Shown here in pieces: positions 27,274-50,343 of a stretch of 64,000 nucleotides of DNA. Origin of the DNA: an uncultured Actinomycetes bacterium (GTDB taxonomy: Bacteria > Actinomycetota > Thermoleophilia > UBA2241). How positions within the stretch are numbered: the first letter of the stretch is position 1; every line of letters starts with the position of its first letter. The stretch spans positions 224,001 through 288,000 of the forward strand of contig CAVWIH010000014.1 of assembly GCA_963755025.1 (NCBI GenBank). The letters run 5' to 3'. The notes below the pieces were generated by a model. That model was not told the DNA's origin. It was given only the letters and a program-made list of their open reading frames with translations, and did not search any database. A program made the translations under genes and the position numbers.

Positions 27274-27465
27274 GGCGACGGCTTTCCTTGGGCCGGCGTG
27301 CTCGCCGGCGAACGCCGTCGTCGGCAGGGCACGGATTTGCCCCGGCGCGGCCGCCTTGGCCTTACGTCGCCGGGCCTGTCGAGTCTACTCGCTCTCGCGG
27401 TCGGGCCTGCGTGTCGCGGCCCCAGGAGGTCGGTTCGTGAATGACAACGCCGGCGTTGGCCGAAG

Positions 27466-27481
27466 ATACCCATAGGGGTAT
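27466..27481. promoter_or_regulatory. CsoR/CstR/RcnR-family operator
   Basis: ATACCC-ATAG-GGGTAT. Confidence 0.75.
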
Positions 27482-27521
27482 ATTGGTGGCCATCTTGGAG
27501 GCCGACCGCACGGAGTCCCGC

Positions 27522-27707
27522 ATGATCGTCGTCGACGACCGCTATTGTCCGCAGAACCACGCCTGTCCCGCCGTGGCCGCCTGTCCCGAAGGCGCCATGA
27601 CGCAGGACGGTGTCTCTGCCGCGCCGCGCATCGACCACGACCTCTGCACCGAGTGCGGGGTGTGCACGGGCCTCTGTCGCGTCTTTTCGCTGGTGCGCGA
27701 CGAATAG
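27522..27707 (+). CDS. Small 4Fe-4S ferredoxin
   Basis: CPQNHACPAVAACP and CTECGVCTGLC. Confidence 0.85.
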   Translation: MIVVDDRYCPQNHACPAVAACPEGAMTQDGVSAAPRIDHDLCTECGVCTGLCRVFSLVRDE

Positions 27708-27724
27708 GAGCGCGACCGCGCCCC
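27707..27724 (-). promoter_or_regulatory. Putative SECIS hairpin of zinc-ribbon gene 1
   Basis: GGGGCGC-GGTC-GCGCTCC; loop begins 20 nt after the UGA at 27740-27738. Confidence 0.65.
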
Positions 27725-27728
27725 GAGG

Positions 27729-27935
27729 TCAGCGACCTCAGCCGTAGCCGCCCGTCGGTACCGCACCACAGGTCGGCGCCGACAGAGGTCCGTTGCTGAG
27801 GAAGCTGCCCACCGTCTGGCGGACGTCGCTCGAGCCGCACTTGGGGCAGCGCTTCTGGCGGTCCTTGATCGCTCCGGCCGTCTCTACGACGAAGCCGTGG
27901 TCGCACGCCTTGCAGACCAGCTTGATAATCGCCAC
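27729..27935 (-). CDS. FmdB-family zinc-ribbon protein, probable selenoprotein (UGA at 27740-27738)
   Basis: CKACDH...CPKCGS...CGAVPTGGYG-TGA-GGT-CGC-TGA. Family call is firm; Sec readthrough is inferred. Confidence 0.75.
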
Positions 27936-27961
27936 GGCATCCCTCCTGAGAATGACGTCAT

Positions 27962-27977
27962 ATACCCTAGGGGGTAT
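27962..27977. promoter_or_regulatory. CsoR/CstR/RcnR-family operator
   Basis: ATACCC-TAGG-GGGTAT, 26 nt upstream of zinc-ribbon gene 1. Confidence 0.8.
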
Positions 27978-28180
27978 CATAGTCCAAGGCGCCTTCGCCC
28001 TGCAACATCGCCCGCGCATCCGCGCGGGGCACAAGCGGCCGTCGGCGCCGGCGCGCCACGCACGGTGGCGCGCGCCGGCGCGCCACGTCACGGTGGCGCG
28101 CGATACCGCCGGGGTGTAGTCTCGCCCATCCAAAAGTCGACCGGCCCGCCAAACCGGGCCACCGAATCGGAGCGTGGGCC

Positions 28181-28507
28181 ATGAAGGGCACAGCAGACGT
28201 GCAGGCCGGCATCTGCGGGCACCACACGACCGTCGAGGCGCAGAGCGGCGATGCCCGTCGCGTGACGTTCACGATCGAGACGACCTGCGACAACATCGAG
28301 CGCTTCACGGCGCAGGTCGCGGCGGTCGTGCCCGTCGACGCCTACAAGGAGATCAACCCGAAGGCGTCGAGCGACGTGCTCGACTGCGGGCGCGAGGCCC
28401 ACATCTGCACCGACTGCATCGTGCCGGCGTCGGCGCTCAAGGCGTTGCGCATAGCGACCGGCCTGGCGCTGCCGGGCGACGCGGCCATCGCCATCGCCAA
28501 AGGCTGA
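28181..28507 (+). CDS. Small Cys-rich conserved protein (DUF6951-like)
   Basis: AGICGH, ETTCDNI, HICTDCIVP, GLALP pattern. Confidence 0.6.
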   Translation: MKGTADVQAGICGHHTTVEAQSGDARRVTFTIETTCDNIERFTAQVAAVVPVDAYKEINPKASSDVLDCGREAHICTDCIVPASALKALRIATGLALPGDAAIAIAKG

Positions 28508-28511
28508 CGCT

Positions 28512-29717
28512 TCAGGGCAGCTGCACCAGGCCGTTCTTCATCTTCGTCATGTAGTAGCGCTCGAAGCCCAGCTTGGCCCAATGCGACCAGGGCCCGGGGA
28601 TCATGATCTCGAACTTGCGCGGCTTGAAGACGCGGTCGAGGCCGATGATCATGCCCTGCGTGCCGGCGTCCATGATGCACAGCGGGCGGATGTCGCCGAA
28701 GGGCTTGACGATGGGCTCGGCCCCGGTGATGGCGGCGGCGATGTTGTGGGCCGTCACTTTGGCCATGACCTCGGCCATCCAGCCCGTCTTGGGCACGCCG
28801 GTCGGCACCTCGGTCGGGTGCGGCGGCTTGACCTGCACCGCGACCCCGGCGGCGTAGACATTGGCGAAGTCCAGATGCCGGTAGCCGTCGTCGACGGGCA
28901 CAAAGCCACGGGCGTCGCCGAGGCCGTCGGAGTCGAGGATGGCCTGCACGCCGGTGAACGGCGGAATGACGATGGCGTACTTGTGCTCGAGCACGCGCCC
29001 GTCGGACAGCGTGATGGCGCCCTTGCTCACGGCGCTCGTCGAGACGTTGGCGATCGCCTGCACGCCGAGCATCTTGAAGTAGCCCTTGAGCATGGCCTCG
29101 CCGCCGCGCATGCCGCCGATGCCGAAGTGGCCCAGGAAGGGCTCGGCGGTGAAGAAGGTGAGCGGCGCCTCGCGGCGGATCTTCGCCTGGCGCAACGCGC
29201 GGTCGATGTTGAAAGCCACCTCGTACTCGGCGCCGAAGCAGCTCGCCCCCTGGGTCGAGCCGATCACCACCGGACCGGGGTCCTGCACGAAGTCGAGCCA
29301 GGCCTTGGCGGCCTCCATGGCGTGGGGCAGGTTGCAGACCGACCAGGTGGTGCCGTCGGCCGGACCAAAGCCGGGCACGACGGCCCAGTCGTACTTGGGG
29401 CCGGTGGCGATCAGCAGGTAGTCGTAGCCGATCTCGCCCTGGTCTGTGATCACCTTGTTCTCGGCCGGCAGGATGCGCTCGGCCGTCGCGAGCGTGAAGT
29501 CGATGCCGCGGCGGCGCAGAGCCGGCTCGAGGGCGAAGCTGATCTGCCCGGGCTTGCGCCACCCGGGCACCACCCAGATGAGCGAGGGAATGAAGACGAA
29601 GCGCGGGTCGCGCGAGACGACGGTGACCTCGGCGCGGCCGTCGAGGTCGCGCTTGAGCTTGAAGGCGGCGCTCAGGCCGGCGAAGCTCCCCCCAAGGACG
29701 ACGATCCGTGGCGCCAT
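28512..29717 (-). CDS. sqr: Sulfide:quinone oxidoreductase (type I-like)
   Basis: FAD-binding GGSFAG; three Cys in type I positions (WSVCNLPHA, GASCFG, LCIMDAG); VPKTG motif; AKLGFERYY C-terminal helix. Confidence 0.88.
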   Translation of the reverse strand: MAPRIVVLGGSFAGLSAAFKLKRDLDGRAEVTVVSRDPRFVFIPSLIWVVPGWRKPGQISFALEPALRRRGIDFTLATAERILPAENKVITDQGEIGYDYLLIATGPKYDWAVVPGFGPADGTTWSVCNLPHAMEAAKAWLDFVQDPGPVVIGSTQGASCFGAEYEVAFNIDRALRQAKIRREAPLTFFTAEPFLGHFGIGGMRGGEAMLKGYFKMLGVQAIANVSTSAVSKGAITLSDGRVLEHKYAIVIPPFTGVQAILDSDGLGDARGFVPVDDGYRHLDFANVYAAGVAVQVKPPHPTEVPTGVPKTGWMAEVMAKVTAHNIAAAITGAEPIVKPFGDIRPLCIMDAGTQGMIIGLDRVFKPRKFEIMIPGPWSHWAKLGFERYYMTKMKNGLVQLP

Positions 29718-29854
29718 GGCTACTCCCCTCGATCGCGATTCGACTGTGACAAATCGTGCGGGCGGTTCCTACCCGACAAGCCTCGCCGCCAGCCCTTTCG
29801 TATCATCACCCGAACGGCATGCCGGACGGTCGCGGGACCAGGTCGACCGCGGCC

Positions 29855-30061
29855 TCAGCCCTGCCTTGTCGTGTCGAAGCCCAGCGGACGGTAGAGCTGG
29901 CACGAGCCCGTTGCGGCCGTGAACAGGAGTACCGTGCCCACGAGGCCCGCACCGAGGCCCAGCGGCCTCCTGGCCTTCAGGCCGGCGGCGAGAGCGAGGA
30001 GGCCGGCGCCAAGGATCGCCCTTGCCATGCGGTCGACGGCGCCTTCGTTGCGAGGGAACAT
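29855..30061 (-). CDS. DUF2892 (YgaP-like) small membrane protein
   Basis: RNEGAVDRMARAILG...TAATGSCQLYRPLGFDT. Confidence 0.85.
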   Translation of the reverse strand: MFPRNEGAVDRMARAILGAGLLALAAGLKARRPLGLGAGLVGTVLLFTAATGSCQLYRPLGFDTTRQG

Positions 30062-30067
30062 GACTGC

Positions 30068-30394
30068 CTACCTTTCCGGTTCGAGAGCCCGTGCGCGGAG
30101 CGTGAGCTCGCGCCCGAGGATCTCGTCGATCAAGGCGCAGGCTTGCGCCAGGCGTGGGTCGACGACGCCCCACGACACGCGGCCGCCCTCGCGGGTGCGC
30201 CGCACCAGCCCCTCGCGCTGCAGCACGGCGAGGTGCTGCGACACGTTGGGCCGGCTGACCCCCAGGAGCTCCGCGAGCTCGCTCGGCGTACGGGGGCCGT
30301 CGCACAGGTGGTGCATGAGCTCGTGGCGCGTGGGGTTGGCGAGGGCCGCGAACACGGCGGCGTGGATGGCGTAGCGTTGTCGTTCATCGTCCAT
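30068..30394 (-). CDS. ArsR/SmtB-family regulator, BigR/SqrR-like
   Basis: ALANPTRH, VSQHLAVL; Cys pair in HHLC and AQAC. Confidence 0.85.
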   Translation of the reverse strand: MDDERQRYAIHAAVFAALANPTRHELMHHLCDGPRTPSELAELLGVSRPNVSQHLAVLQREGLVRRTREGGRVSWGVVDPRLAQACALIDEILGRELTLRARALEPER

Positions 30395-30403
30395 GACCGC
30401 GTT

Positions 30404-30437
30404 ATTGCCAAGTTTCGCAATCCTGCAACATGGCAAT
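30404..30437. promoter_or_regulatory. Inverted-repeat operator between the divergent arsR and osmC genes
   Basis: ATTGC-N8-GCAAT (30404-30421) within a larger ATTGCCA...TGGCAAT inverted repeat. Confidence 0.55.
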
Positions 30438-30484
30438 TCTTCTGGCAGTCAGGTCAGACAAGGCATGAAGAAAGGGCCCGAGTC

Positions 30485-30880
30485 ATGGATATGCAGATCT
30501 ACTTCCCCGGCGGCAAGCGCGTCTTCGCCGGTTACGGCGAGTTCACCGTCGAGACCGATCAACCCGCGCAGGGCGGAGGCGACGGTTCTGCTCCGGCTCC
30601 CTTCGATCTGTTCCTGGCCTCGATCGGCACCTGCGCCGGCATCTACGCGCTCGGCTTCATGCAACAGAGGGACCTCGACCCGACCGACGCAAAGATCACC
30701 ATGCGCACCCATCGCGATCCGGCAAGCGGGCTCGTCAGCAAGATCGATCTTGAGCTGCAGCTTCCGGCGGACTTCCCCGACAAGTACCGCGACGCCGTGG
30801 TCAACGCGATGAACCTCTGCACCGTCAAGAAGCACCTGCACCAGCCACCGGCCTTTGAGATCACCACGGTGGCCGGCTGA
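30485..30880 (+). CDS. OsmC-family protein
   Basis: TDQP..GG..SAPAPFDLFLASIGTCAG...NLCTVKKHL. Confidence 0.9.
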   Translation: MDMQIYFPGGKRVFAGYGEFTVETDQPAQGGGDGSAPAPFDLFLASIGTCAGIYALGFMQQRDLDPTDAKITMRTHRDPASGLVSKIDLELQLPADFPDKYRDAVVNAMNLCTVKKHLHQPPAFEITTVAG

Positions 30881-31464
30881 TGGCCGACGCCTTCGACCCC
30901 CAGCACGCGGGGCGCTTCGAAGACCCGGCCCGCCTCGCCGCCCTGCCGCAGGCCGCGGTCGTGTCGCTGCTGCGCCTTGGTGGCGGCGAGACAGTGGTCG
31001 ACTACGGGGCGGGTACCGGCACCTACACGATCGGCGTGGCCGAGGCCGTCCCCGACGGCCGCGTCATCGCCGTCGAGGCGTTACCGCGCCTGGCCGAGAT
31101 GCTGCGCGCCAAGCTCACCCCAGAGCTCATCGACCGACTCGAGGTCGTCGAGACCGACTCCAACTCCGTGCCGGCACCCGATGGAGTCGCCGACCGCGTC
31201 GTCATGATCGACGTACTGCACCATCTGTACGACCAGCCCGAAGCGCTTGCGGAGGTCACGCGGCTGCTGCGTCCTGGAGGCCTCTTTGTCGTCGTGGACT
31301 GGGGCGACCGCGAGAGGCCTGTGGGCCCACCGCTTGACCACGTACTGGGGCTGCTAGCCGCGGTGCGCGAGTTGGTCTCGGGCATGGGCCTCTACGAGAT
31401 CGAGGGGCACGAGCCGGGCACGCTACTGCCCTGCCATCTCGCCGTGGTAGCCGGCAAGGCCTGA
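30880..31464 (+). CDS. Class I SAM-dependent methyltransferase
   Basis: VVDYGAGTG, VLHH, LLRPGG, DW..GPP. Confidence 0.88.
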   Translation: MADAFDPQHAGRFEDPARLAALPQAAVVSLLRLGGGETVVDYGAGTGTYTIGVAEAVPDGRVIAVEALPRLAEMLRAKLTPELIDRLEVVETDSNSVPAPDGVADRVVMIDVLHHLYDQPEALAEVTRLLRPGGLFVVVDWGDRERPVGPPLDHVLGLLAAVRELVSGMGLYEIEGHEPGTLLPCHLAVVAGKA

Positions 31465-31588
31465 GCAGCCCGGTCCTGCCGCCTTGGCCGAGCGCCCGTA
31501 GGCGGGCGGAAGACGTGATGAAGAACGAGGGAGCCGCCGCGCCGCCCGGGTTCGAGGGGCGCGGCGACCTCCTCGTTGCGCGGAGACC

Positions 31589-31999
31589 CTAGAGGACCTG
31601 AACGACGTCGGCTTCTTCGCAGCCCGCGATGTACTGGGCGATCCCGACGATGTCGTCGACGACGTCGACGAAGTCTTCGAGCGCGCCGGCGCCCCAGATC
31701 TTGCCCGCCGTGCCGCAACAGTGGATCTTGACCTTGCCCTCGGCCTTGAGGCTCCGCAGGTTGTCGAGCGGCGCGGGCACGCTGTTGTCGGCCATGCCGC
31801 TCAGCAGCTCCGCGTGAAGCTCCGGTCGATCGGCGTAGGCGCCGCCGCCGGCAACGTCCTTGCGAAAGGCGTAGGCGCCGCCGAGCAGCAGGTAGATGTC
31901 GACCTCCATATCGAGCGCCACGGCGCCGCCGGTGAGCGTGCTGGCGACGAGCAGCTTCTCGATGCTGCCGCTCGCCAGGCCGATGATCATCGAACTCAT
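31589..31999 (-). CDS. DsrE-family sulfur carrier protein
   Basis: ASGSIEKL, KIHCCGTA, DIVGIAQYI; last gene of the hdr operon. Confidence 0.75.
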   Translation of the reverse strand: MSSMIIGLASGSIEKLLVASTLTGGAVALDMEVDIYLLLGGAYAFRKDVAGGGAYADRPELHAELLSGMADNSVPAPLDNLRSLKAEGKVKIHCCGTAGKIWGAGALEDFVDVVDDIVGIAQYIAGCEEADVVQVL

Positions 32000-32061
32000 T
32001 GACTCCTCCTTCGAGCTCGCACGCACGCGGTCCGCGCCGGCTCTAGCCGGCGTCGGCCCTG

Positions 32062-32592
32062 TCAGATGAACAGGTTGACGTTAGCCTCGTCGGCCTCGCC
32101 CAGGTACGAGCCCACGCCGGCGAACTCGAGGCCGTCCATGAGCTCCTCTTCGCGCAGGCCCATGACGTCCATCGACATGGTGCAGGCGACCATCTTGATG
32201 CCCTGTTCCCTGGCGCTCTCGATGAGCTCGTCGAGGGTCATGACGTTGTTGTCCTTCATGACCTTCTTCATGAGGGGCGCGCCCATGCCGGCGAAGTTCA
32301 TCTTCGACAGGCCGAGCTTGTTGGCGCCCCGCGGCATCATCTTGCCGAACATCGCCTGCAGCGCCGACTTCTTCTTGCCGACCTGCACCTTCTCCGCCTT
32401 GCGCAGGGCGTTCAGGCCCCAGAAGGTGAAGAACATGGTGACGTCGTCGCCCATGGCCGCGGCGCCGTTGGCGATGATGAAGGCGGCCATCATCTTGTCG
32501 AAGTCGCCGCTGAACACGATGATCGTCTTCTTCGTGGTGCGCACGTCGACCGAGTCGGCGCTCTCCATGACGGCTTGTGTCTGGTCGTCCAT
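32062..32592 (-). CDS. DsrE/DsrF/DrsH-like sulfurtransferase (DsrE_2 type)
   Basis: FSGDFDK, AFIIANGAAAMG, FFTFWGL, VACTMSMDVMG. Confidence 0.9.
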   Translation of the reverse strand: MDDQTQAVMESADSVDVRTTKKTIIVFSGDFDKMMAAFIIANGAAAMGDDVTMFFTFWGLNALRKAEKVQVGKKKSALQAMFGKMMPRGANKLGLSKMNFAGMGAPLMKKVMKDNNVMTLDELIESAREQGIKMVACTMSMDVMGLREEELMDGLEFAGVGSYLGEADEANVNLFI

Positions 32593-32605
32593 CAAGTGCT
32601 CTCCT

Positions 32606-33583
32606 TCAAGATGCGTAGGCTGCGCGCAGGTACTGCGAGATGTCCTTGAAGCGCATGGTGTCGCCGGCCGCGTTGCTCAGGTTCACGAAGCACATGGGGC
32701 ACATGGTGACCGCGTCGGGCGCGGCCTCGCGGAGCTGCGCGACGCGCTTCTCCGCGTTGGCGATCGCCTTGGCCGGGTAGAGCGACTCGACGGGGCCGCC
32801 GCAGCACCAGGTCTGGCGGCCCGAGTTCTCGGGGTCGCGGACGGTCAGGCCGGCCGCGGCGAGCAGCTCGCGCGGCTCGTCGACGATGCCCTCGTAGCGG
32901 GCAAAGACGCAGGAGTCGTGCACCACGATCTCGCCCGAGAGCGCCCTGGCGGTGTGGCCGTTCGCGCCGAAGCCCTTCTCGACCAGCACCTCGAGGTAGC
33001 TCTTCACCTCGACGTCGTAGCCGCTCAGGATCTTGGGATAGACGCTGCGCAGCATGGTCGTGGTGTGCGGGTCGATGGTGATCACGGTCTTCACGCCGCG
33101 CGCTTTGAACGCGGCGTGGACCTTCTTGGCGTGCTCGACCACGACCTCGTCGAGGCCCAGGTCGTAGGCCAGGGCGCCCGAGTAGAGGTCGTCCTCGTAC
33201 AGGGCTCCGAACTGCACGCCGGCCTTGCGCAACAGGTGGACGACGTTGACCGGCACCTGGTCGTAGACGGCGCGCTCCGCTGCCGAGGGCCGTGCCATGA
33301 ACGCGGAGATGTTGAGCATGCGGTTCACGCGACGGCCCAGGCCGGTGTACTTGCCGAGCCACGAGTCGCCGAACTTGATCTCCGCCTTCACGAGGCCCTC
33401 GATGTACGGGATGAGCTGGTACATCAGCCCCGTATAGAGCACGGTCTCCCCGCCGCGCGGCAGGTCGAGGCCCTCGGTCCACTTGGTAGCCACCCGGGTC
33501 GACAGGGGAAGCACCGACTTTCGCAGGCGCAGGTTGTCGCCCAGGATGCCGATCACGTCACCGGTAGGAAGAGGCATCGTCAT
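32606..33583 (-). CDS. HdrB/HdrD-like CCG-domain Fe-S protein
   Basis: C-terminal HDSC, WCCGGP and TMCPMC intact; N-terminal CCG repeat lacks Cys (YTGLMY, DLYSG, TIDPHT). Confidence 0.82.
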   Translation of the reverse strand: MTMPLPTGDVIGILGDNLRLRKSVLPLSTRVATKWTEGLDLPRGGETVLYTGLMYQLIPYIEGLVKAEIKFGDSWLGKYTGLGRRVNRMLNISAFMARPSAAERAVYDQVPVNVVHLLRKAGVQFGALYEDDLYSGALAYDLGLDEVVVEHAKKVHAAFKARGVKTVITIDPHTTTMLRSVYPKILSGYDVEVKSYLEVLVEKGFGANGHTARALSGEIVVHDSCVFARYEGIVDEPRELLAAAGLTVRDPENSGRQTWCCGGPVESLYPAKAIANAEKRVAQLREAAPDAVTMCPMCFVNLSNAAGDTMRFKDISQYLRAAYAS

Positions 33584-33894
33584 CCCTCCCCAAGGCCGTA
33601 GCTGGTTCGCACGATGTGGTGCCGCAGCGTGCGCACGTTCTCGGCGATGTGCACGCCCGCGGGGCAGTTCTCTTCACACATCTTGCAGAGCAGGCAGGAG
33701 AAGACGCTTTCGGTCTCCGCCCTGACCCTGGTCTCCATGCCGAGGAGCACGTACCGGAACAGTTTGCGCACCTCGGCGTCGACGCCCATCGGACAGATGG
33801 CGGAGCACACCCCGCAGTTCATGCAGGCGTCGGCGTTGAACTCGTCGGAGCGCGCCAGCTCCATCGCCAGCCCGGGGTTCACGAGAGCCGTCAT
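33580..33894 (-). CDS. HdrC-like 2x[4Fe-4S] protein
   Basis: CMNCGVCSAICP and CLLCKMCEENCP. Confidence 0.85.
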   Translation of the reverse strand: MTALVNPGLAMELARSDEFNADACMNCGVCSAICPMGVDAEVRKLFRYVLLGMETRVRAETESVFSCLLCKMCEENCPAGVHIAENVRTLRHHIVRTSYGLGEG

Positions 33895-34190
33895 GAGCCC
33901 TCCCTCTCCACCACTTGGTAGCGGTAGTAGCCTTCGTCGTTGACTTCTTTGATCTCGGCCAGCCAGCCGTACTTGCGTAGGCCCATGACCCAGAACATCG
34001 CTTCGTGGGCCGGCCGCTCGATGGCCGCCGCGATCTCGGGCACCGTGAGGGGCCCGTCGGCGAGCACGGCCAGGATGCGGCGTCGCATGACCTGCTCGTC
34101 GCGCACGATCTCGCGTACGTCGCGCTGGCCCGGCGCGGCGTCCCTGATCACAGGGCGGACCGTCGTGATCGCCTTCTCGTCAGGCGTCAT
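33891..34190 (-). CDS. Small winged-helix-like protein inside the hdr operon
   Basis: RRILAVLADGPLTVPEIAAAI...LRKYG...EGYYRY; ATGA overlaps at both ends. Confidence 0.7.
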   Translation of the reverse strand: MTPDEKAITTVRPVIRDAAPGQRDVREIVRDEQVMRRRILAVLADGPLTVPEIAAAIERPAHEAMFWVMGLRKYGWLAEIKEVNDEGYYRYQVVEREGS

Positions 34191-35926
34191 GAGCAGGTCA
34201 CCTCCAGGAGGCCGTCGATCATGGACCTGATCTGGGCATCGGTGTAGCCCTGCAGGTCGACAGCGTCGCTGGCGCACACGGGCACGCAGCCGCCGCAGCC
34301 CTTGCAGGCCGTTCTGATGACCTGGGCAATCTGCCTGCCGTCGGCTTCGACCTGCTCGATCGCGTCGTAGGGGCAGGCCTCCTGGCACTTGCCGCACCAG
34401 GTGCAGGCCTCGGCGGCGACCAGCGCCACCATGGGGTCGAGCTCGGCGAAGCCGCGCTTGAGCATGGCGCCGCTCTGCGTGACGGCCGCAAGGCCGCTGG
34501 CGACGCTCTCGGCTGAGTTCTTGGGCGCCTGGCACGCGCCGCAGATGAGCACGCCGTCGACGATCGTCTCGACGGGTCGCAGCTTGGGGTGGATCTCGTT
34601 GTAGAAGCCGTCGTTGCCCACCGGAAGCTTGAGGACGCCGGTGAGCTCGGCGTTCTCGCGCGGCACCATGCCGGTGACGAGCACGACGAGGTCGGCCGGA
34701 ATGGCCACCTCTTCCCCGCCGGTCAGCAGGTCGTTCGTGGTGACCTTGAGACCGCCGGAGGAGAGTCTCTCGACCGCCGGCGGCTCGTCGTCGGGCACCC
34801 GCAGGTAGAGCGAGCCCTTCTCGCGCGACTCGCTCCACAGCAGCTCGTACTTGCCGTAGGTGCGCATGTCGCGGTAGAGGTGGTACTGACGCAGCCCGGG
34901 GTCGCCCTTGGCGGCCGCCTCGAGCGCGGTGTGCACCGCAGACGTGCAGCAGTAGCGCGAGCAGTAGGTGTGAGCGCCGTCTAAGCTCTCGTCCTGACGG
35001 CTGCCGACGCAGTAGACGTAGGCGATGGTCTTCACCGGCCGGCCGTTGTACTGCAGCGGGCCGTCCGCTGCGTCGACCATCGTCTTGAACTGCGGCAGCG
35101 TCACCACGCCGTCCAGGCCGTAACCGAACTCGCCGGCCGTCGGCTCGTAGTCGTCGAAGCCGGTGGCGGCGACGATCGAGCCGACGTCGAGCTGGATCGT
35201 CTCGAGCTGGTCGCCGTGAATGGCGATAGTCACCTGGTTGTTGCCAAAGCTGCCGCTCTTGGCCATCAGCTCGGCATTGGTGAACACGGTGATCGCCGGG
35301 TTGGCGCGCACCCTCTCCTCGAGCGTGGCCACCAGGTCAGAGCCCTTGCGGCCTTGCGGGAACATGGGGCCGTACGCGGCCACACGGCCGCCGAGCCGGG
35401 CCTCTTTCTCGACCAGGAAGACGGTGAGGCCGATCTCCGCCAGCCCCAGCGCCGCACGCAGGCCGGCGATGCCGCCGCCCACGACGAGGCTCTTGGGCGT
35501 CGTCTCGACGACGATCGGTTCGAGCGGTTCGGTGAGGCGCGTGCGGTTGATGCCGGCGCGCACAAGGCGCACCGCCTTTTCGGTGGCGCCGGTCTTGTCG
35601 TCGGTGTGCGTCCAGGAGCACTGCTCGCGCACGTTCACCTGCGTGTACTGGAAGGGGTTCATGCCGGCGCGCTTGGCGACGTCGCGGAACGTCAGCGTGT
35701 GCAGCTTGGGAGAACAGGAGGCCACGACGAGGGCGTCGAGGCCCTGCTCCTGGGCATCCTGCACGATCTCCTGCTGGGTCGCGTCGGAGCAGGTGAACAT
35801 CGCGGAGCGGGCGACCACGACGTCGTCGTCCCCCTTGATCTCGGCGACGACCTTGTCGACGTCGACGTAGTCGCCGATGTTGCCGCCGCACTGGCAGACG
35901 TACACGCCGATCTTGCGGCCGCTCAT
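34187..35926 (-). CDS. hdrA: HdrA-family flavoprotein with C-terminal ferredoxin
   Basis: CQCGGNI, SCSP, REQCSW, GGGIAG, CVGSR..CSRYCC, HPKLRPVET, two CxxCxxCxxxC. Confidence 0.92.
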   Translation of the reverse strand: MSGRKIGVYVCQCGGNIGDYVDVDKVVAEIKGDDDVVVARSAMFTCSDATQQEIVQDAQEQGLDALVVASCSPKLHTLTFRDVAKRAGMNPFQYTQVNVREQCSWTHTDDKTGATEKAVRLVRAGINRTRLTEPLEPIVVETTPKSLVVGGGIAGLRAALGLAEIGLTVFLVEKEARLGGRVAAYGPMFPQGRKGSDLVATLEERVRANPAITVFTNAELMAKSGSFGNNQVTIAIHGDQLETIQLDVGSIVAATGFDDYEPTAGEFGYGLDGVVTLPQFKTMVDAADGPLQYNGRPVKTIAYVYCVGSRQDESLDGAHTYCSRYCCTSAVHTALEAAAKGDPGLRQYHLYRDMRTYGKYELLWSESREKGSLYLRVPDDEPPAVERLSSGGLKVTTNDLLTGGEEVAIPADLVVLVTGMVPRENAELTGVLKLPVGNDGFYNEIHPKLRPVETIVDGVLICGACQAPKNSAESVASGLAAVTQSGAMLKRGFAELDPMVALVAAEACTWCGKCQEACPYDAIEQVEADGRQIAQVIRTACKGCGGCVPVCASDAVDLQGYTDAQIRSMIDGLLEVTCS

Positions 35927-38646
35927 GACGCCACCTTCGCTTTCGCCGCTTCGCTCACGTGCGCTCGCTCCAGGTGGGCTGCGGCCTGTGCGACCGCGGC
36001 GCCCGCGTGGAGGATCGAGTCGGGGATGTCCTTGGCCCCGGCGGCCGCGCCGGCGACGAATACGCCGGGGAGGTTGGTGCGACCGGGGTCGAGGTCTTCG
36101 TCGGCCTCGCCGACGTAGAAGTAGTCGTCGAGCGCGAGGGCGCCGTCGCCGTCGCCGAACAGTTCGGCGACCCCGAGGCTGGGCTGCACGCCGACCGCGA
36201 GGACGACCATGTCGTGCTCGGTCTCGGCGAGCGTGCCGCCGTTCTCGATGTCTTCGTAGCGCAGCACGAGGTTGCCCTCGCCCGTCTCGGTGATGCCCGA
36301 GACACGGCCCTTCACGAAGTTGGCGCCCATGTCTTTGGCCTGCTGGTAGAACTCGTCGTAGCCCTTGCCGACCGAGCGCACGTCGATGTAGTAGACGGTG
36401 ACGTCGGCGAGGGGCAAGGCGCCCATGATGAGCTGGTTCTGCTTGACCGAGTACATGCAGCAGATCTTGGAGCACAGCGGGTTGTCGACGGTCTCGTCGC
36501 GCGACCCGGTGCACATGACGTAGGCGATGTTGTCCGGCACCTTGCCGTCGCTGGGGCGCAGCACCGCGTTGTAGGGCCGCGTCGGCGCCAGCAGGCGGTC
36601 CATCTGCATGCCGGTGATCACGTTCTTGTACCGGCCGTACCCGTACTGCGGCTTGGCGTCGGCCGGGAAGAGCCTGAAGCCGGTGGCCAGCACCACGGTG
36701 CCGACCTCGGCCTCGAACTCGCGCTCGCGGTCGTCGAGGTTGATGGCGTCGGCGGGACAGACGTCGACGCAGGCGTGGCACTCCGAGCAGACGCCGCAGT
36801 CGAGGCAGCGGGCGGCGCCGAGGAACGCTTCGTCCTCGGTCAGTGTGGCCTCGGTCTCGGCGAAGTCGCTCGGCGAGGCGCTCATGGCGGCGCTCGACTC
36901 GAGCGGCTCGCGCCGGTCGTAGACGTCTTGCCGGCGAAGCACCGTGTCCTTGTCGACGACGGCCAGAGCCTCGTCGAAGGCGTCCGCGTCCATCGCGGCG
37001 CCCTGCAGGTAACGGTCGATCATGAAGGCGGCGCGGCGGCCGTGGCCGACGGCGCTGTTGATCATCGTGGGGCCGGTGACCACGTCGCCGGCGGCAAAGA
37101 CGTGCGGCACGGCGGTCTGCAGCGTGGCGGGGTCGGCCTTGAGGGTGTGGTTGCCGTTGGTCTCGAGGCCGAACGCCGCCGTGTCGGCGCCCATGCCGGC
37201 GGCGACGATCACGACGTCGCACTCAAGGGACTTGTGCTGACTCTCGTCGTACTCGGGCCTGAAACGGCCGTCGGGGTCGAAGACGCAGGTGCAGACCTTG
37301 AGGTCGGCGCCCTGCACGTGGCCCTCGCCGGTGAAGTGATCGATGCCCCAGCCGTCGTGCAGGGTGATGCCCTCGGCCCTGGCCTCTGCGACTTCGAAGT
37401 CGTGGGCCGGCATCTCTTCGCAGCATTCCAGGCTGACCTGGTCGACCGACGCGGCGTCGAGGCGGCGCGCCGTGCGCGCCGCGTCGATGGCGACGTTGCC
37501 GCCGCCGACCACCAGCACGCGTTTGCCGGCCACGTCGACGGCTTCGCCGAGCTTGACGGCGCGCAGGAACTCGAGCGCGGTCTGCACGCCGGCGAGCTCC
37601 TCGCCCGGCACGCGCAGACTCACGGACTTGTGGGTGCCCGTCGCCACAAGGACGGCGTCGAAGCCGTCGTTCTTGAGACCCGCGACGTCGTCGACCCGCG
37701 TGGCGGTCGCGATCTCGACACCGATCGCGGTGACGTTGGCGATGTCGTCGTCGATCACGTCGTTGGGCAGCCGGTATGCGGGGATGCCGAGGCGCAGCAT
37801 GCCGCCGGCCTGCGGGGCTGATTCAAAGATCTTGACGCCGTAACCCTTGCGCGCAAGCTGCCAGGCGGCGGTCAGGCCGGCCGGACCCGAGCCCACGACG
37901 GCGACCTTCTTGCCGTTCTGCTCGGGCTGCTCGAGAGGCTTCAGCTCTGCCTGCCCGTAGTGCCGGTCGGCGATGAAGCGCTTGAGCCGGCGAATGGGCA
38001 GCGGGCCCTCGAGCTCGCCGCGCGTGCACTGCTCTTCGCAGGGCGCGTAGCAGGCGCGCCCAAGCGAGCCGACCAGCGGCGTCGTCTCGAGCACCAGGCC
38101 AAAGGCCTCTTCGTATTCGCCGCTGCGCACGCGGGCCACGTAGCCGTGCGCCTTGATGCCCGCGGGGCACTCGTAGGTGCACGGCGAGACGCCGGCGCGG
38201 TCGATGACCGCCTTCTTGGGCACCGCCTGCGGAAAGGCGATGTAGGCGGCGCGGCGCGACACCATGTCGGCGTTGAACTCGTCGGGTACCGCCACGTTGC
38301 AGGCCATCTCGCACAGCCGGCAGCCGGTGCAGGCGGCCTCGTCGATGAACTTGGGCTTCTGGCGGATGGTGGCATGGTAGCCGCCGTTGCCGTCGGCGCG
38401 GATGCCGTCGACCTCGGCGTAGGTGAGCACGTCGATGTTGGGGTGGTGGACGGTGGCGGCCATCTTCGGGGTGGAGATGCAGCTCGCGCAGTCGAGCGTT
38501 GGAAAGACCTTGCTGAGCAGGATCATCTTGCCGCCCACGCTGGCCTGCTTTTCGACGACGAGCACCTTGTAGCCCATGTCGCCGAGCTTGAGGGCCGACT
38601 CCATGCCGCCGATGCCGCTGCCTACTACAAGAGCGTCGTACTTCAT
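35923..38646 (-). CDS. hdrA: HdrA with an inserted GltD/NfnB-like NAD(P)H module (HdrL-type)
   Basis: GSGIGG, KVFPTLDCASC, CTGCRLCEMAC; insert CTYECP, GRACYAPCEEQC, GSGPAG, GGGNVAID, AAGDVVTGP; then CLDCGVCSECHAC and CTGSRD..CSKICC. Confidence 0.9.
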   Translation of the reverse strand: MKYDALVVGSGIGGMESALKLGDMGYKVLVVEKQASVGGKMILLSKVFPTLDCASCISTPKMAATVHHPNIDVLTYAEVDGIRADGNGGYHATIRQKPKFIDEAACTGCRLCEMACNVAVPDEFNADMVSRRAAYIAFPQAVPKKAVIDRAGVSPCTYECPAGIKAHGYVARVRSGEYEEAFGLVLETTPLVGSLGRACYAPCEEQCTRGELEGPLPIRRLKRFIADRHYGQAELKPLEQPEQNGKKVAVVGSGPAGLTAAWQLARKGYGVKIFESAPQAGGMLRLGIPAYRLPNDVIDDDIANVTAIGVEIATATRVDDVAGLKNDGFDAVLVATGTHKSVSLRVPGEELAGVQTALEFLRAVKLGEAVDVAGKRVLVVGGGNVAIDAARTARRLDAASVDQVSLECCEEMPAHDFEVAEARAEGITLHDGWGIDHFTGEGHVQGADLKVCTCVFDPDGRFRPEYDESQHKSLECDVVIVAAGMGADTAAFGLETNGNHTLKADPATLQTAVPHVFAAGDVVTGPTMINSAVGHGRRAAFMIDRYLQGAAMDADAFDEALAVVDKDTVLRRQDVYDRREPLESSAAMSASPSDFAETEATLTEDEAFLGAARCLDCGVCSECHACVDVCPADAINLDDREREFEAEVGTVVLATGFRLFPADAKPQYGYGRYKNVITGMQMDRLLAPTRPYNAVLRPSDGKVPDNIAYVMCTGSRDETVDNPLCSKICCMYSVKQNQLIMGALPLADVTVYYIDVRSVGKGYDEFYQQAKDMGANFVKGRVSGITETGEGNLVLRYEDIENGGTLAETEHDMVVLAVGVQPSLGVAELFGDGDGALALDDYFYVGEADEDLDPGRTNLPGVFVAGAAAGAKDIPDSILHAGAAVAQAAAHLERAHVSEAAKAKVAS

Positions 38647-39113
38647 GCTGCCGATGCCTTTCGCGACGGGCCCAGCTTGGTCAGGACCGCGGAGAACTCG
38701 TGCATGTAGTTGGTGAAGGGCTCCGCGCAGACCGAGCAGATGGCCGCCATGCGCAGGCGTTGCGGCTCGTAACCGTGGTCGACGAGCAGCGTCTGGGCGG
38801 CGGCCATGATCTGCGAGGTGCGTTCGCTGCAGTCGGACAGGTAGGCGCACTCGTCGCCGTCGGCGGCGACGAAGACGCCGTCGAAGCCCTGCTGCACGGC
38901 GTAGAGCGCCCAGCTCGGCTTGATGCCGCTCGTGCAGGGCACGCTGATCACCATGACGTTGGGCGAGTAGTGCATGTGCGAGCTGCCCGCCAGGTCGATC
39001 CCCGGGTCGGAGATGTTGTTGGTGGACAGCACCAGGATACGGGGCACGAAGCTGTCGTCCCCGCCGTGCGCCGACGCAGCCGCGTCGACCGCCGTTGCGG
39101 CATCGGGCGCCAC
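38643..39113 (-). CDS. mvhD: MvhD/FlpD-like iron-sulfur subunit with an altered Cys set
   Basis: GIDLAG..HMHY, VPCTSG, GFDGVFV, ECAY, PQRLRMAAICSVC..F. Confidence 0.82.
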   Translation of the reverse strand: MAPDAATAVDAAASAHGGDDSFVPRILVLSTNNISDPGIDLAGSSHMHYSPNVMVISVPCTSGIKPSWALYAVQQGFDGVFVAADGDECAYLSDCSERTSQIMAAAQTLLVDHGYEPQRLRMAAICSVCAEPFTNYMHEFSAVLTKLGPSRKASAA

Positions 39114-39364
39114 TACTTCATCTTCCTGACGTAGAGCTTCATGAAGCCGGGCTCTTCGACGGTGCCGAGGAACTCGTGGCCCATCTTCTTGCACCACGCC
39201 GGGAGGTCTTTCTGCGTGCCCGTGTCGGTGGCCATGACCTCCATGACGCCACCCACGGAGACGCTGGGAATGCCCTTCTTGGCGGCCAGGATGGGGCCTG
39301 GGCACGAGGTGCCTCTGGCGTCGACTACCTTCTCGGCCTGGATCGTGGTCAGGTCTTCTGTCAT
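39113..39364 (-). CDS. tusA: TusA-family sulfurtransferase
   Basis: VDARGTSCPGP, ATDTG, WCKKMGHE; AAGGAGG RBS. Confidence 0.92.
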   Translation of the reverse strand: MTEDLTTIQAEKVVDARGTSCPGPILAAKKGIPSVSVGGVMEVMATDTGTQKDLPAWCKKMGHEFLGTVEEPGFMKLYVRKMK

Positions 39365-39487
39365 GACGGCTCCTCCTTGAGGGACGACTGCTTGTGCTTG
39401 TGCCTTCATTCGCAAAGTGGCAGGAATCCTCGGCCTGTCCCGTGCGGTCTCGAGTGGGCTTGCCCGGCGGCCCGGCAGGCGCGCCGG

Positions 39488-39865
39488 CTAGGGCGCCGGC
39501 GGCAACGGCAGGTGCTGGACCGCCTCGAGCACGCCGGGAGCGAGCAACGACTCGCCCAGCTCGCGGTGCTGCTCGATCAGGGCCTGACGAATGAGGGTGC
39601 AGCCCTGGATGAACTTGGGGTTGGTCATCGAGTAATAGACCGTCTGCGCGTCTTTACGCGGCTTGACGAGCATCTGGTCCTTGAGGACGCGCAGGTGCTG
39701 CGAGACGTTGTGCACGGAGATCCCCAGGGCCTCGGCGAGGTCGCCGACGCACAGCTCCTGCTGGCTCAGGGCGTACAAGATGCCGAGCCGGTGAGGGTTC
39801 GCCAGGGCCCTGCAGAGCTCCGCGTGCATCCTGAAGAGGGGCTCCAGGTCGGCGGCCTGCGGCAT
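39488..39865 (-). CDS. ArsR/SmtB-family regulator (alternative start 39892)
   Basis: AELCRALANPHRL, ELCVGDL, VSQHLRVL, IQGC. Confidence 0.88.
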   Translation of the reverse strand: MPQAADLEPLFRMHAELCRALANPHRLGILYALSQQELCVGDLAEALGISVHNVSQHLRVLKDQMLVKPRKDAQTVYYSMTNPKFIQGCTLIRQALIEQHRELGESLLAPGVLEAVQHLPLPPAP

Positions 39866-40017
39866 GGTGTGATTGTCGTTCCGTATTTGCATAGTTTCAT
39901 ATATACGCTTTACCGCAGTCACGGTCAAGCAGTTGGTCGTCGCGGCACCCCGAGCTCCGTGCACCGAGTTCGAACGGCGGCCCGCTTTGCACAAGACTCT
40001 GCGGGAACTATACTGAC

Positions 40018-40033
40018 ATACCCTAGGGGGTAT
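40018..40033. promoter_or_regulatory. CsoR/CstR/RcnR-family operator
   Basis: ATACCC-TAGG-GGGTAT, identical to 27962-27977. Confidence 0.8.
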
Positions 40034-40106
40034 ATAGGTGCCAGGTAGGCGAGGGGCTTTCGGTCACTCGAGCCGCCCTCGGCACAGAAGCGAGAAGTGA
40101 GGGATC

Positions 40107-40316
40107 GTGGCGCTGTACGACTTTGTCTGTGGCGACTGCGACCACACCTTTGAGGTGTTCTCGATCGGCTTTCTCAAAGCCGAGCAGGAGGAGTGCCCGC
40201 AGTGTGGCTCGCACAACGTTCGTCAGAAGTTCTCGAGCTTCCTGACCGCAGGTTCCGGCTCCGGCTCCGCCTCGGGCTGCGACGCGCCGTCGGGCAGCCC
40301 GTTCGGCTGAGGCTGA
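40107..40316 (+). CDS. FmdB-family zinc-ribbon protein, probable selenoprotein (UGA at 40308-40310)
   Basis: LYDFVCGDCDHTFE...CPQCGS...CDAPSGSPFG-TGA-GGC-TGA. Family call is firm; Sec readthrough is inferred. Confidence 0.78.
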
Positions 40317-40322
40317 GACCGG

Positions 40323-40340
40323 GCGGCGCGGTCGCGCCGC
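40323..40340 (+). promoter_or_regulatory. Putative SECIS hairpin of zinc-ribbon gene 2
   Basis: GCGGCGC-GGTC-GCGCCGC; loop begins 19 nt after the UGA; possible lower stem GGCT/AGCC. Confidence 0.68.
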
Positions 40341-40415
40341 AAAGGGAGCCGACCAGAGGCGGATGCGAGTCCGTGGTCTGATCCACAAGGATCACTCCAG
40401 ACAGCGAAGGGGACC

Positions 40416-40505
40416 ATGGCTACAGTGACCATCCATGCGAAGAGCCGACCGTTCGTCGGTTGCGACCGGCGGCGTCTCGCCGCGGCCCCCGGCGCCGGGA
40501 GGTAG
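40416..40505 (+). pseudogene. 29-aa ORF resembling a glutaredoxin with its centre deleted
   Basis: GAAGGGG RBS; MATVTIHAKS-RPFVGCDRRRLAAAPGAGR resembles Grx/NrdH N- and C-termini without CxxC. Confidence 0.35.
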
Positions 40506-40509
40506 CGCG

Positions 40510-40865
40510 ATGTGGCCGTTTCGCCGTGCGCCCCGCGCACCTGCTTCGGCGCCCACCACGATCGACGTCCGTGAGGCGTGGGCCAGAACGCGCAAGGGCG
40601 CGCGGCTGGTCGATGTGCGCTCGGGGCGCGAGTTCGCCGGGGGCCACCCCAAGGGCGCGCGCAACCTGCCGCCGGCGCGCATAAAGTCCGGCGAGACCGG
40701 CCTGGCGCTGGAAGACGAGATCCTCGTCATCTGCCTGAGCGGGCATCGCAGCCCCCGGCAGGCCAGAAAGCTGGCGGCCATGGGATACGTCAACGTCGCC
40801 AACGTGAGCGGCGGCCTGCTCGCCTGGAACGCGCCGGTCTGCCGGTCAAGGGGTCGCGCCGATAG
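40510..40865 (+). CDS. Rhodanese-domain sulfurtransferase (-1 frameshift near 40826)
   Basis: GGAGGT RBS; LVDVRS, GGHPKGA, active loop ICLSGHRS, VSGGLLAW then ERAGLPV in the shifted frame. Confidence 0.88.
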
Positions 40866-41037
40866 CCCTTTCACGCACGGCCCGGTGATCGCCGGGCACG
40901 ACATCGATCTCTGCCTTGGTTCTCCGGTCTGAACAGCTCCGGATAAGGCGGCCACGCCGGGGCCATCAGCACGGCGATCCCAAAGCGATGACGACGAGAG
41001 CCGGCGCGCGAATAACTCGAACGAGGAGGGTCAAGGG

Positions 41038-49912: not shown

Positions 49913-50308
49913 TCAGCCCAGGGCGGCGACGACGCGCGTGAAGCGCTGCTTCACCTCGGCGGCGATCTGGTCGAGCACGGGGTTGGCGATCTGGCCGAGC
50001 ATGCCGGCCGGGTCGACCGCGCTCACGTGCGTGCCGTCGGCCGCCTCGTAGACGACGACGTTACAGGGCAGGAACACGCCCAAGTCGGGTTCGGCCTCGA
50101 GCGCCTGGTGGGCGAGCCGCGGGTTGCAGGCGCCGATGATGAGGTAGCGACCGCGCTCGATGCCGAGCTTCTCCTTGAGCGCGCCCCGCACGTCGATCTC
50201 GCTCAGTACGCCGAAGCCCTCATCCTTAAGCGCTTCTTTGACGCGCGGCACGACCTCGTCGTAGGGCGCGGCGAGCGTCGTGCCGATCGCATAAGCAGGT
50301 ACGTCCAT
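49913..50308 (-). CDS. DUF302-domain protein
   Basis: EGFGVLSEID, IIGACNP, FLPCNVVV. Confidence 0.9.
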   Translation of the reverse strand: MDVPAYAIGTTLAAPYDEVVPRVKEALKDEGFGVLSEIDVRGALKEKLGIERGRYLIIGACNPRLAHQALEAEPDLGVFLPCNVVVYEAADGTHVSAVDPAGMLGQIANPVLDQIAAEVKQRFTRVVAALG

Positions 50309-50343
50309 GGCTCCCCCTTCGATTCCGACTCCGTGCACCACGG

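Follow-up and report, generated by a model that had tools for sequence, protein, structure and literature searches.

We have analyzed a stretch of 64,000 nucleotides (nt) from the genome of an uncultured Actinomycetes bacterium (contig CAVWIH010000014.1, positions 224,001 to 288,000 of the forward strand; from here on the window, with positions counted from its first letter) and found that two small zinc-ribbon genes of the FmdB family, here called FmdB1 and FmdB2, most probably extend beyond the TGA codon at which they would normally be taken to end. The comparison of related sequences makes it very likely that this first in-frame UGA is decoded as selenocysteine (Sec), and it is from this comparison that we infer the insertion of Sec itself. 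Taking all the data together, the best explanation, in which we have good confidence, is that FmdB1, FmdB2 and a third paralogue located outside the window are selenoprotein genes.

A preliminary description of this DNA had proposed that the two genes share a tail in which UGA is read as Sec, followed by a hairpin that acts as selenocysteine insertion sequence (SECIS). When the sequence was re-read, the tails, the coordinates and the second stop codons were in all details as it had given them. The genes and their hairpins are the following:

27729 to 27935, minus strand: coding sequence of FmdB1 read with Sec, start GTG at 27935, zinc ribbon CxxC...CxxC, product of 68 residues.
27707 to 27724, minus strand: SECIS-like hairpin of FmdB1, 7-bp stem with one G-U pair, loop GGUC.
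40107 to 40316, plus strand: coding sequence of FmdB2 read with Sec, start GTG at 40107, zinc ribbon and Gly/Ser linker, product of 69 residues.
40323 to 40340, plus strand: SECIS-like hairpin of FmdB2, perfect 7-bp stem, loop GGUC.

The GTG of FmdB1 is preceded by a ribosome-binding site (AGGAGGG), and its tail, C-G-A-V-P-T-G-G-Y-G, is followed by UGA (Sec, 27740-27738), Gly (GGT, 27737-27735), Arg (CGC, 27734-27732) and the stop TGA (27731-27729). With TGA translated as Sec the protein reads VAIIKLVCKACDH...CPKCGS...SAPTCGAVPTGGYG-U-G-R-stop. Similarly, the tail of FmdB2, C-D-A-P-S-G-S-P-F-G, is followed by UGA (Sec, 40308-40310), Gly (GGC, 40311-40313) and the stop TGA (40314-40316), giving VALYDFVCGDCDH...CPQCGS...GSGSGSASGCDAPSGSPFG-U-G-stop. 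Both conform to the pattern C-x8-[FY]-G-TGA-GGN-(x)-TGA, with the tail Cys exactly 10 codons ahead of the TGA, as had been claimed for them. All four ribbon positions are Cys codons in the two genes and TGA codons appear only at the C-terminus.

Membership of the FmdB family was judged by a score over the curated cut-off and by a pair of N-terminal CxxC motifs spaced about 17 residues, and on both counts FmdB2 belongs to it (50.4 bits against Pfam Zn_ribbon_8, PF09723, with a cut-off of 34.4, and 45.2 bits against TIGR02605, with a cut-off of 31.3). FmdB1 has the motifs and scores below both cut-offs (E 3.3e-7 and 30.6 bits for Zn_ribbon_8, 26.4 bits for TIGR02605), and is a diverged member. 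A scan of both proteins against NCBIfam release 20.0 returned TIGR02605 as the sole selenoprotein-related family. The AlphaFold2 model of FmdB2, built with 29 relatives, has a confident three-stranded ribbon at residues 1-45 (predicted local distance difference test, pLDDT, approximately 73-92) and an unstructured, low-confidence tail at residues 46-69 (pLDDT 45-58).

The hairpin of FmdB1 consists of the stem strands 27724-27718 and 27713-27707 and the loop GGTC at 27717-27714, which corresponds to nt 24-27 counting the U of the UGA as 1; its last base overlaps the stop codon of a convergent ferredoxin-like open reading frame (ORF; 27441-27707, plus strand). In FmdB2 the stem strands are 40323-40329 and 40334-40340, the loop GGTC (40330-40333) occupies nt 23-26, and the whole hairpin lies 3' of the second stop, with 12 nt between the UGA and the base of the stem. 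The core GCGC-GGTC-GCGC is the same in both while the outer pairs differ and still pair, as the preliminary description had noticed. Both hairpins present a G- and U-bearing apical loop within the approximately 16-37 nt 3' of the UGA. A search with the covariance model R1, which recovers GGUC-type sites and misses low-GC hairpins, matched the FmdB1 site at 27691-27740 on the minus strand (39 bits, E 7.9e-8) and the FmdB2 site at 40308-40356 (54.8 bits). Two more matches of the same model in the window, at 52194-52237 (plus strand, 24.9 bits) and 50989-51031 (plus strand, 18.1 bits), have neither a zinc-ribbon ORF nor a matching tail and were read as GC-rich chance palindromes. Rfam gave no family at its gathering score in the window, and around both sites noise only.

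FmdB1 has besides a second small hairpin, GAGGUC-GCU-GACCUC (27739-27725, minus strand), that spans the last two letters (GA) of the Sec codon and also the real stop. It was not seen in FmdB2 and could affect decoding.

The genome has 1159 coding-like ORFs with TGA as terminal codon, and in 25 of them a second in-frame stop comes 2-3 codons on; 6 of these 25, FmdB2 among them, are followed as well by a hairpin of 6 bp or more whose loop starts at nt 17-27 (FmdB1 and the third paralogue failed the ORF filter used for this count). The combination of a near second stop and a well-placed hairpin is thus rare, more than chance would give.

The comparison with relatives strongly supports the Sec reading. 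An FmdB-like match was detected in 52 of 61 related genomes, including all the 36 other genomes of the window's family. Combining the best matches among these 61 genomes, a 251-genome sample of the phylum and some extra regions, we collected 99 distinct zinc-ribbon ORFs from 92 loci and 81 genomes, and classified them mechanically. In 53 ORFs the TGA was followed by an in-frame stop within 3 codons, and 47 of these carried a hairpin whose stem had 6 bp or more and whose loop started at nt 15-30. The same hairpin was found in only 4 of the 20 ORFs, mostly with Cys-rich tails, where the next stop after the TGA was 4 to more than 39 codons on, and in 8 of the 26 that ended in TAA or TAG, i.e., 47/53 for the ORFs with a near second stop versus 12/46 for all the others. 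Homologues keep the TGA at this position, then a short in-frame extension and the hairpin, as would be expected if the preliminary description was right.

We kept as Sec-type 51 of the 53 ORFs; the two dropped as chance cases (L053 and L086) combine a Cys-type tail with a short stem (3 and 5 bp) and belong to genomes where selA was not found. In the 51 Sec-type genes the coding sequence continues beyond the in-frame UGA. The codon after the UGA specifies Gly in 42 (GGC 21, GGA 14, GGG 4, GGT 3), with Ala (5), Arg (2), Cys (1) and Ser (1) in the others. The added stretch has one codon in 30 genes and two codons in 21, never any other length, and the second stop is TGA (36), TAG (9) or TAA (6). 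Upstream, the residue before the Sec is G in 32, T in 9, S in 6 and R in 4, and the one before that is F in 43, Y in 4 and other in 4. The last Cys is located 4-11 residues ahead of the Sec in 46 of the 51, and exactly 10 in 26. Translation past the UGA predicts both the synonymous variation of the Gly codon and the invariable presence of an in-frame stop, whereas an untranslated spacer predicts neither.

The hairpins of the Sec-type genes have 31 different stem sequences, with the loops GGUC (25), GUC (5), GGC (5), GGA (3) and others, nearly always with G first, and the loop starts at nt 17-27, most commonly at nt 22. Base pairs were counted on the 25 GGUC-type sequences aligned with MAFFT; the MAFFT alignment of all 51 sites misaligns the hairpins with 3-nt loops, and the alignment derived from the covariance-model search, which mixes true and reverse-strand matches, was excluded from the counts. 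In this 25-row alignment, made without reference to the structure, 98.9% of the cells pair and 3 of the 7 pairs have changed on both sides. The covariation score was reached by 0 of 500 shuffles, and when the partner strand was slid, pairing fell to 17-70%.

The tail of one copy is aberrant. At locus L031 of genome G017 (minus strand, near 60-275) it reads ...GFGGGF-TGA-S-R-G..., the nearby second stop is absent and the GGUC hairpin lies just 15 nt past the TGA, which could be due to a short deletion or to an error of assembly. On this short contig there are two further matches to the hairpin model.

Where two such genes had been described, both confirmed here, the total in the genome is actually three. 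The third Sec-type paralogue (G000:C14:92547-92741, locus L014:1498-1737) is outside the window and has the tail ...GCADCAQGSSGGFT-U-G-S-stop, with GGFT before the Sec, and the hairpin CGGGCG-CGUG-CGCCCG with the loop at nt 20-23. It is flanked by an NAD-dependent epimerase gene downstream and a double zinc-ribbon ORF upstream, and is preceded by the same palindrome, ATACCC-N4-GGGTAT, found before the two window genes (see below). A fourth FmdB gene, on contig C19, has a classical Cys-rich tail (...CGGSSCGTCH-TGA), and there no second stop follows within at least 24 codons, nor was a comparable hairpin found.

The machinery that Sec decoding requires, selD, selA, selB and tRNA-Sec, is all present in the genome. 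The three genes lie together on contig C28, with 351.9, 517.7 and 330.1 bits for selD, selA and selB, respectively, all over the curated cut-offs, and ARAGORN detected the tRNA-Sec on contig C24. Two other genes of this genome appear to use it. The selD gene itself (G000:C28:111226-112143, plus strand) has one in-frame TGA, followed by a hairpin with the loop CGUGU at nt 20-24. A formate-dehydrogenase-alpha-like (fdhA-like) gene (G000:C30:102262-102888, minus strand) has an in-frame TGA at C30:102588 within the motif ...SIDHCART-U-HAPTVAG and a downstream hairpin with the loop GGUCU at nt 22-26. A hairpin comparable to those after FmdB1 and FmdB2 is thus present in known selenoprotein genes of this genome, and the FmdB hairpins look like the SECIS elements that the organism already uses. 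The fdhA-like site was the only recognizable one in a genome-wide scan for in-frame TGA codons flanked by coding-like sequence, which gave 50 candidates, nearly all of them gene junctions, and is not a census of the selenoproteome.

The preliminary description did not hold where it had considered the hairpin as a SECIS peculiar to this lineage. A GGUC loop with a spacer of approximately 12 nt is the classical bacterial type and is present in the fdhA-like gene as well. In the SECIS of Escherichia coli fdhF, which is of this classical type, the hairpin starts approximately 11-13 nt after the UGA and has a GGUC(U) loop in which SelB reads G23 and U24. The FmdB element has a similar loop but differs from the fdhF type in that it is untranslated and its stem, a perfect helix of just 7 bp, shows no obvious bulged U.

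If the hairpin acts in Sec insertion, the arrangement should follow the Sec trait. We found selA in 48 of the 61 relatives and in 170 of the 251 genomes of the phylum sample; the counts 50/251 and 170/251 rest in part on eight genomes flagged as unpublished (G061, G077, G105, G143, G172, G196, G262 and G273), from which no sequence or locus was used. Of 68 genomes with selA, 40 had the gene together with a hairpin of 6 bp or more, versus 2 of the 13 where selA was not found; these latter genomes have for the most part Cys-rich tails and ordinary stops. One of these two, G021, is 51% complete and has a tRNA-Sec match over the threshold. In G012, where selA was not found, there is a selD gene with an in-frame TGA. 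In the family f2 selA was found in 0 of 5 genomes. Its orthologues have the same N-terminus, PTYDLxC...FEVFRQGFLRDEDRxCP, and end in ...GFGGGGGGCCGGSCGCGG, ...GGCGCGGH or ...CCGGACGGH before TAG or TAA. In such Cys-rich tails, for example ...CCGGSCGCGG, the Cys sit a few residues after the G-F-G motif. One database homologue, P0086, reads ...YTFG-C-GG... and is the single sequence with F-G-C-G. By sequence, a cluster of Cys seems to stand in the tail where Sec is unavailable, which comes near to a classical Cys/Sec pair without being cleanly aligned.

The Sec-type tail is spread well beyond the window's family. Low-GC families of the same phylum have tails such as ...GCGTGGFR-U-G-TAA, ...CSTGG-U-G-F-TAG and ...GCGTGSFG-U-G-TAA, with hairpins such as CGAGCC-GGU-GGCUUG. 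Metagenome contigs of 34-42% GC (L125, L126, L143, L161 and L167), from unrelated low-GC organisms, gave ...SCSPFG-U-G-F-TAA and ...CSTTSGGG-U-G-I-TAA, where TAA or TAG are the real stops, with 7-10-bp hairpins at nt 21-22. These five are the clear cases, to which two possible ones can be added, among 55 distinct metagenome ORFs. At the protein level, a HMMER search of 1.84 billion representatives retrieved 431 proteins at E of 0.001 or less. Among the best 150 of these 431, 147 are shorter than 130 residues, and of these 56 end in C-x(3-12)-[FYW][GSTRK], 21 have Cys-rich ends and 70 other ends, many of them ...CAPSGG. In a collection of 5.8 billion proteins, 11 of 11 close relatives end, as protein records, at the position of the UGA. 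A search of genome contigs with FmdB2 gave only two Amaricoccus loci, which match residues 3-35 and are uninformative. A Sec 1-2 residues from the end produces neither a long ORF extension nor an aligned Cys, the two signals on which current searches depend, and so public records stop at the UGA; gene callers and searches based on Cys/Sec pairs would miss the family because only 2-3 residues are lost.

Upstream of FmdB1 and FmdB2 there is a common operator-like palindrome, as the preliminary description had pointed out, and a rhodanese gene follows FmdB2:

27962 to 27977, strand not applicable: operator-like palindrome ATACCC-N4-GGGTAT, upstream of FmdB1.
40018 to 40033, strand not applicable: operator-like palindrome ATACCC-N4-GGGTAT, between a divergent ArsR-family gene (39488-39994, minus strand) and FmdB2.
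40435 to 40932, plus strand: rhodanese-domain gene (Pfam Rhodanese, E 4.1e-15), 118 nt downstream of FmdB2.

The operator of FmdB2 is just downstream of a sigma-70-like promoter (39986-40014). The motif occurs at only 6 sites in the 3.37-Mb genome, all of them on this contig, which makes for a small regulon: three before the three Sec genes (the third at C14:92490), and the others at 27466-27481 and 50344-50359 of the window and at C14:309090. Among homologues, it was found 27-104 nt upstream of 24 of the 51 Sec-type genes (19 strict and 5 loose) versus 0 of 48 other zinc-ribbon ORFs, so the regulatory link is conserved across the family. The site at 50344-50359 lies between diverging genes for a DUF302 protein (49913-50341, minus strand) and a DUF5714 protein (50559-51272, plus strand), the latter with a Cys-rich N-terminus and a ...GGWCGYYGACGAALG... 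stretch.

FmdB1 and FmdB2 do bracket the sulfur cluster of the window, including the sulfide:quinone reductase (SQR)-like and Hdr-like genes, as had been stated. The cluster codes for a PF03601 membrane protein, the ferredoxin-like ORF, a DUF6951 protein, an SQR-like flavoprotein, a YgaP-like membrane protein, two ArsR-family regulators, a methyltransferase, two DsrE-family proteins, HdrB/C-like proteins and large HdrA-like flavoproteins, TusA, a rhodanese and a pyridine-nucleotide disulfide oxidoreductase. The rhodanese gene is probably co-transcribed with FmdB2, there being no called terminator that separates them, and is part of the context, outside the recoding signal. In 37 related loci the sulfur genes of the window were not conserved beside the gene, with ferredoxin-like and ArsR matches only, in a few of them, so a role in a sulfur relay is not supported by a conserved neighbourhood. 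What the 55 flanking ORFs of relatives do include are CcdA/DsbD-type membrane thiol-disulfide transporters (12), NAD-dependent epimerases (10), thioredoxins (6), flavin reductases (5), extracytoplasmic function (ECF) sigma factors (2) and AhpC/TSA peroxiredoxins (2). The common thread of the neighbours is thiol, disulfide and persulfide chemistry, and from it comes the proposal of a mobile Cys...Sec redox arm on a zinc-ribbon handle. We infer, with low to moderate confidence, that the function would be that of a flexible arm whose selenol takes part in the redox handling of persulfides or thiols.

The main competitor of this functional proposal accepts that the proteins are real selenoproteins and has the Cys/Sec tail bind or sense soft metals, for example Cu(I), Hg or Zn, in the role of a chaperone, buffer or sensor and not as a carrier of sulfur or electrons. 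The genome has a single gene of the CsoR/RcnR family (PF02583; G000:C1:21375-21605, L071:1378-1776), unlinked to the cluster, and the conserved upstream operator presumably resembles those of CsoR-family metal repressors. The protein has Lys, not His, four residues ahead of its second Cys, a His that is the Cu(I) ligand of copper-sensing CsoR and is absent in the persulfide sensor CstR; by its sequence, it would fit a persulfide-sensing, CstR-like repressor, which speaks against the metal. So do the operator-controlled genes of the window, SQR, rhodanese, TusA, DsrE and Hdr-like and not metal pumps, and the thiol-redox proteins next to the gene in relatives (CcdA/DsbD 12, thioredoxin 6 and AhpC 2 of 55). 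On the other hand, several relatives lack adjoining sulfur genes, and a 2026 review states that Sec in the C-terminal "star" families may be a metal ligand (PMC13188914). Overall we consider a metal-binding role unlikely, while giving it more weight than any other alternative.

Several observations weigh against the reading of these genes as selenoproteins with a redox arm. The loci are those that best matched FmdB2, and related genomes are not independent of one another, so that the counts run higher than the true number of independent events. There are 130 GGTC-tetraloop hairpins of 6 bp or more across this genome of 70% GC, and the folding energies are better than those of shuffled sequences by only 0.4-2.2 standard deviations (z-scores of -2.0 and -1.7 for 45 nt, -2.2 and -0.4 for 55 nt); the hairpin by itself is not beyond chance and we have not taken its stability alone as evidence. 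The tail Cys is missing in 5 of the 51 Sec-type genes and hence the Cys-Sec pair is not universal. There is no set of homologues with Cys in exactly the column aligned to the UGA. The genome G185, 97% complete, has a typical gene with its hairpin (locus L090, in a low-GC genome, with the tail ...CSTGG-U-G-F-TAG and an 8-bp hairpin), and selA, selB and selD were not found above the cut-off, its tRNA-Sec-like match being borderline (47.3 bits versus a gathering score of 47). This gene may be a relic or reflect an assembly gap, and we leave it as a real exception without explanation. Finally, the functional proposal comes from gene neighbourhood only, and the immediate neighbours vary by lineage.

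Some of these points would be natural if the first TGA were an ordinary stop, the protein ending in ...[FY]-G, with the second stop as a tandem back-up and the hairpin as an element of RNA stability, processing or termination. Every public gene call ends at the first TGA, GC-rich hairpins are common (the 130 GGTC tetraloops), G185 has the gene where selA and selB were not found, and the hairpin of FmdB1 sits between convergent genes. However, no terminator-like site was called at either hairpin and there is no T-run, the sequences after the stems being CTATTCG and AAAGGGA, so that we rejected an intrinsic terminator. Untranslated sequence would not hold Gly through four synonymous codons nor an in-frame stop at +2 or +3 codons in 51 genes, when a second stop at that distance is found in 25 of 1159 TGA-ending ORFs of the genome. 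The Cys-type FmdB genes that end in TGA have their next stop at least 4 codons off in 20 of 20 cases, the arrangement tracks selA, and the loop sequence and distance match those of the fdhA-like SECIS. An ordinary stop is in our opinion quite improbable.

A third possibility is that the tail belongs to a bacteriocin-like ribosomal-peptide precursor, with the Sec as a substrate for modification and not a redox residue; the description of TIGR02605 likens FmdB tails to bacteriocin precursors. A "Selenobacteriocin" (TIGR04081) with an SGUG motif is listed in Table 1 of the 2026 review (PMC13188914), but no gene for a modification enzyme, protease or exporter was seen among the 55 flanking ORFs or in the window, the zinc ribbon is the best conserved part of the protein, and the gene is present in single or few copies under a stress-type operator, all of which makes this explanation extremely unlikely.

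A crude count of the coding-like ORFs of the whole genome, filtered by GC at the third codon position, gave 1282 ending in TAG, 1159 in TGA and 209 in TAA. TAG being as common as TGA is unusual for a genome of 70% GC, if true of real gene calls.

Under Sec decoding, then, SelB and Sec-tRNA would decode the first in-frame UGA, SelB being recruited by a hairpin that starts 10-13 nt past it and has a G-rich loop (GGUC or CGUG) at nt 20-27. With the true stop one or two codons on, the SECIS would be located entirely in the 3' untranslated region (UTR). The predicted product, of approximately 68 residues, would have a four-Cys zinc ribbon, a disordered Gly/Ser-rich linker and the C-terminus C-x8-[FY]-G-Sec-Gly(-x). 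The tail Cys and the Sec might form a selenenylsulfide on a mobile arm, which could shuttle reducing equivalents or sulfane sulfur.

Sec has been predicted before in the FmdB family, as the preliminary description said, but at another position, so that ours is not the same prediction. The published form, predicted from ocean metagenomes, has the motifs CxxU, U/CxxU or UxxU, with 2 sequences reported (Zhang and Gladyshev, 2008; PMC2398784, PMC9312934, PMC13188914), and is listed under TIGR02605 in reviews of 2022 and 2026. It resembles ours in being a small CxxC...CxxC zinc ribbon, predicted and of unknown function in both cases. Its Sec is inside the CxxC, a different position from the one that concerns us, where the four ribbon Cys are intact, the Sec would be the last residue but one or two and the SECIS would fall within the 3' UTR. 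Among the 119 prokaryotic selenoprotein families tabulated in the 2026 review there is one FmdB entry (UxxU) and NF041197, with the Sec between CxxC motifs, and none with a C-terminal Sec on a zinc ribbon (PMC13188914). A literature search for FmdB or zinc ribbon together with selenoprotein found no description of the C-terminal form; it did not extend to the supplementary family lists (BSepDB, deep-Sep and the groundwater selenoproteome).

The "star" selenoproteins (KCU-star NF033934, UXX-star NF041114/NF041211 and SaoC) also have the Sec 1-3 residues from the C-terminus and the SECIS after the stop, and gene callers truncate them too, but their folds are unrelated to the FmdB ribbon, NF041211 being glutaredoxin-like. 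With NF041211 (threshold 100 bits) the genome gave matches only at C19:47036 (32.9 bits) and on C21 (16.7 bits), not at the FmdB genes. NF041197 (CxxC_Se_CxxC) is likewise a small Sec protein with two CxxC motifs, although its Sec is between them; at a threshold of 40 bits its best matches in the genome reached 12.4 bits at other loci, with none at the FmdB genes. The engineered "Sel-tag", in which a C-terminal Sec-Gly-stop is followed by a bacterial-type SECIS after the stop, has been expressed in E. coli (PMC3411630), which makes a C-terminal Sec-Gly with a post-stop SECIS feasible. The Sel-tag is man-made, and the FmdB form would be its natural counterpart. The Sel-tag, our predicted products and animal thioredoxin reductase (Gly-Cys-Sec-Gly) have in common a flexible arm at the C-terminus in which Gly comes after a penultimate Sec, although thioredoxin reductase is a large flavoenzyme with the partner Cys adjacent, while here the Cys is usually 10 residues off. 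The tail of selenoprotein S is disordered and rich in Gly, with Sec as its penultimate residue and a Cys approximately 14 residues upstream, for which a selenosulfide was proposed (PMC3628699). The likeness of selenoproteins S and K to FmdB is one of design only, these being eukaryotic membrane proteins with eukaryotic SECIS and no zinc ribbon. The recoding mechanism is in sum standard, whereas the C-terminal Sec-Gly variant of FmdB and its breadth appear to be undescribed. Selenoprotein K resembles selenoprotein S in the design of its tail.

Going one step further, and tentatively, since we regard it as possible more than probable, there could be a large unannotated family of FmdB ribbons with a natural "Sel-tag" ([FY]-G-Sec-Gly with a 3'-UTR SECIS) in several families of the phylum and in unrelated low-GC lineages. 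In the window's family its genes would be core members of a CsoR/CstR-type regulon, with the selenolate carrying sulfane sulfur or electrons between rhodanese/TusA/DsrE and the Hdr-like complex, or to thioredoxin/CcdA in relatives.

The novelty would be in the protein family, the position of the Sec and its distribution, the recoding mechanism being ordinary. If confirmed, these genes would add a widespread family of small selenoproteins and expose a blind spot in gene finding. They would also provide a natural bacterial SECIS that acts entirely from the 3' UTR, something so far best known from engineered constructs. The specific operator and the adjoining sulfide and persulfide genes make the use of selenium and the stress by sulfane sulfur or thiols testable together in this organism.

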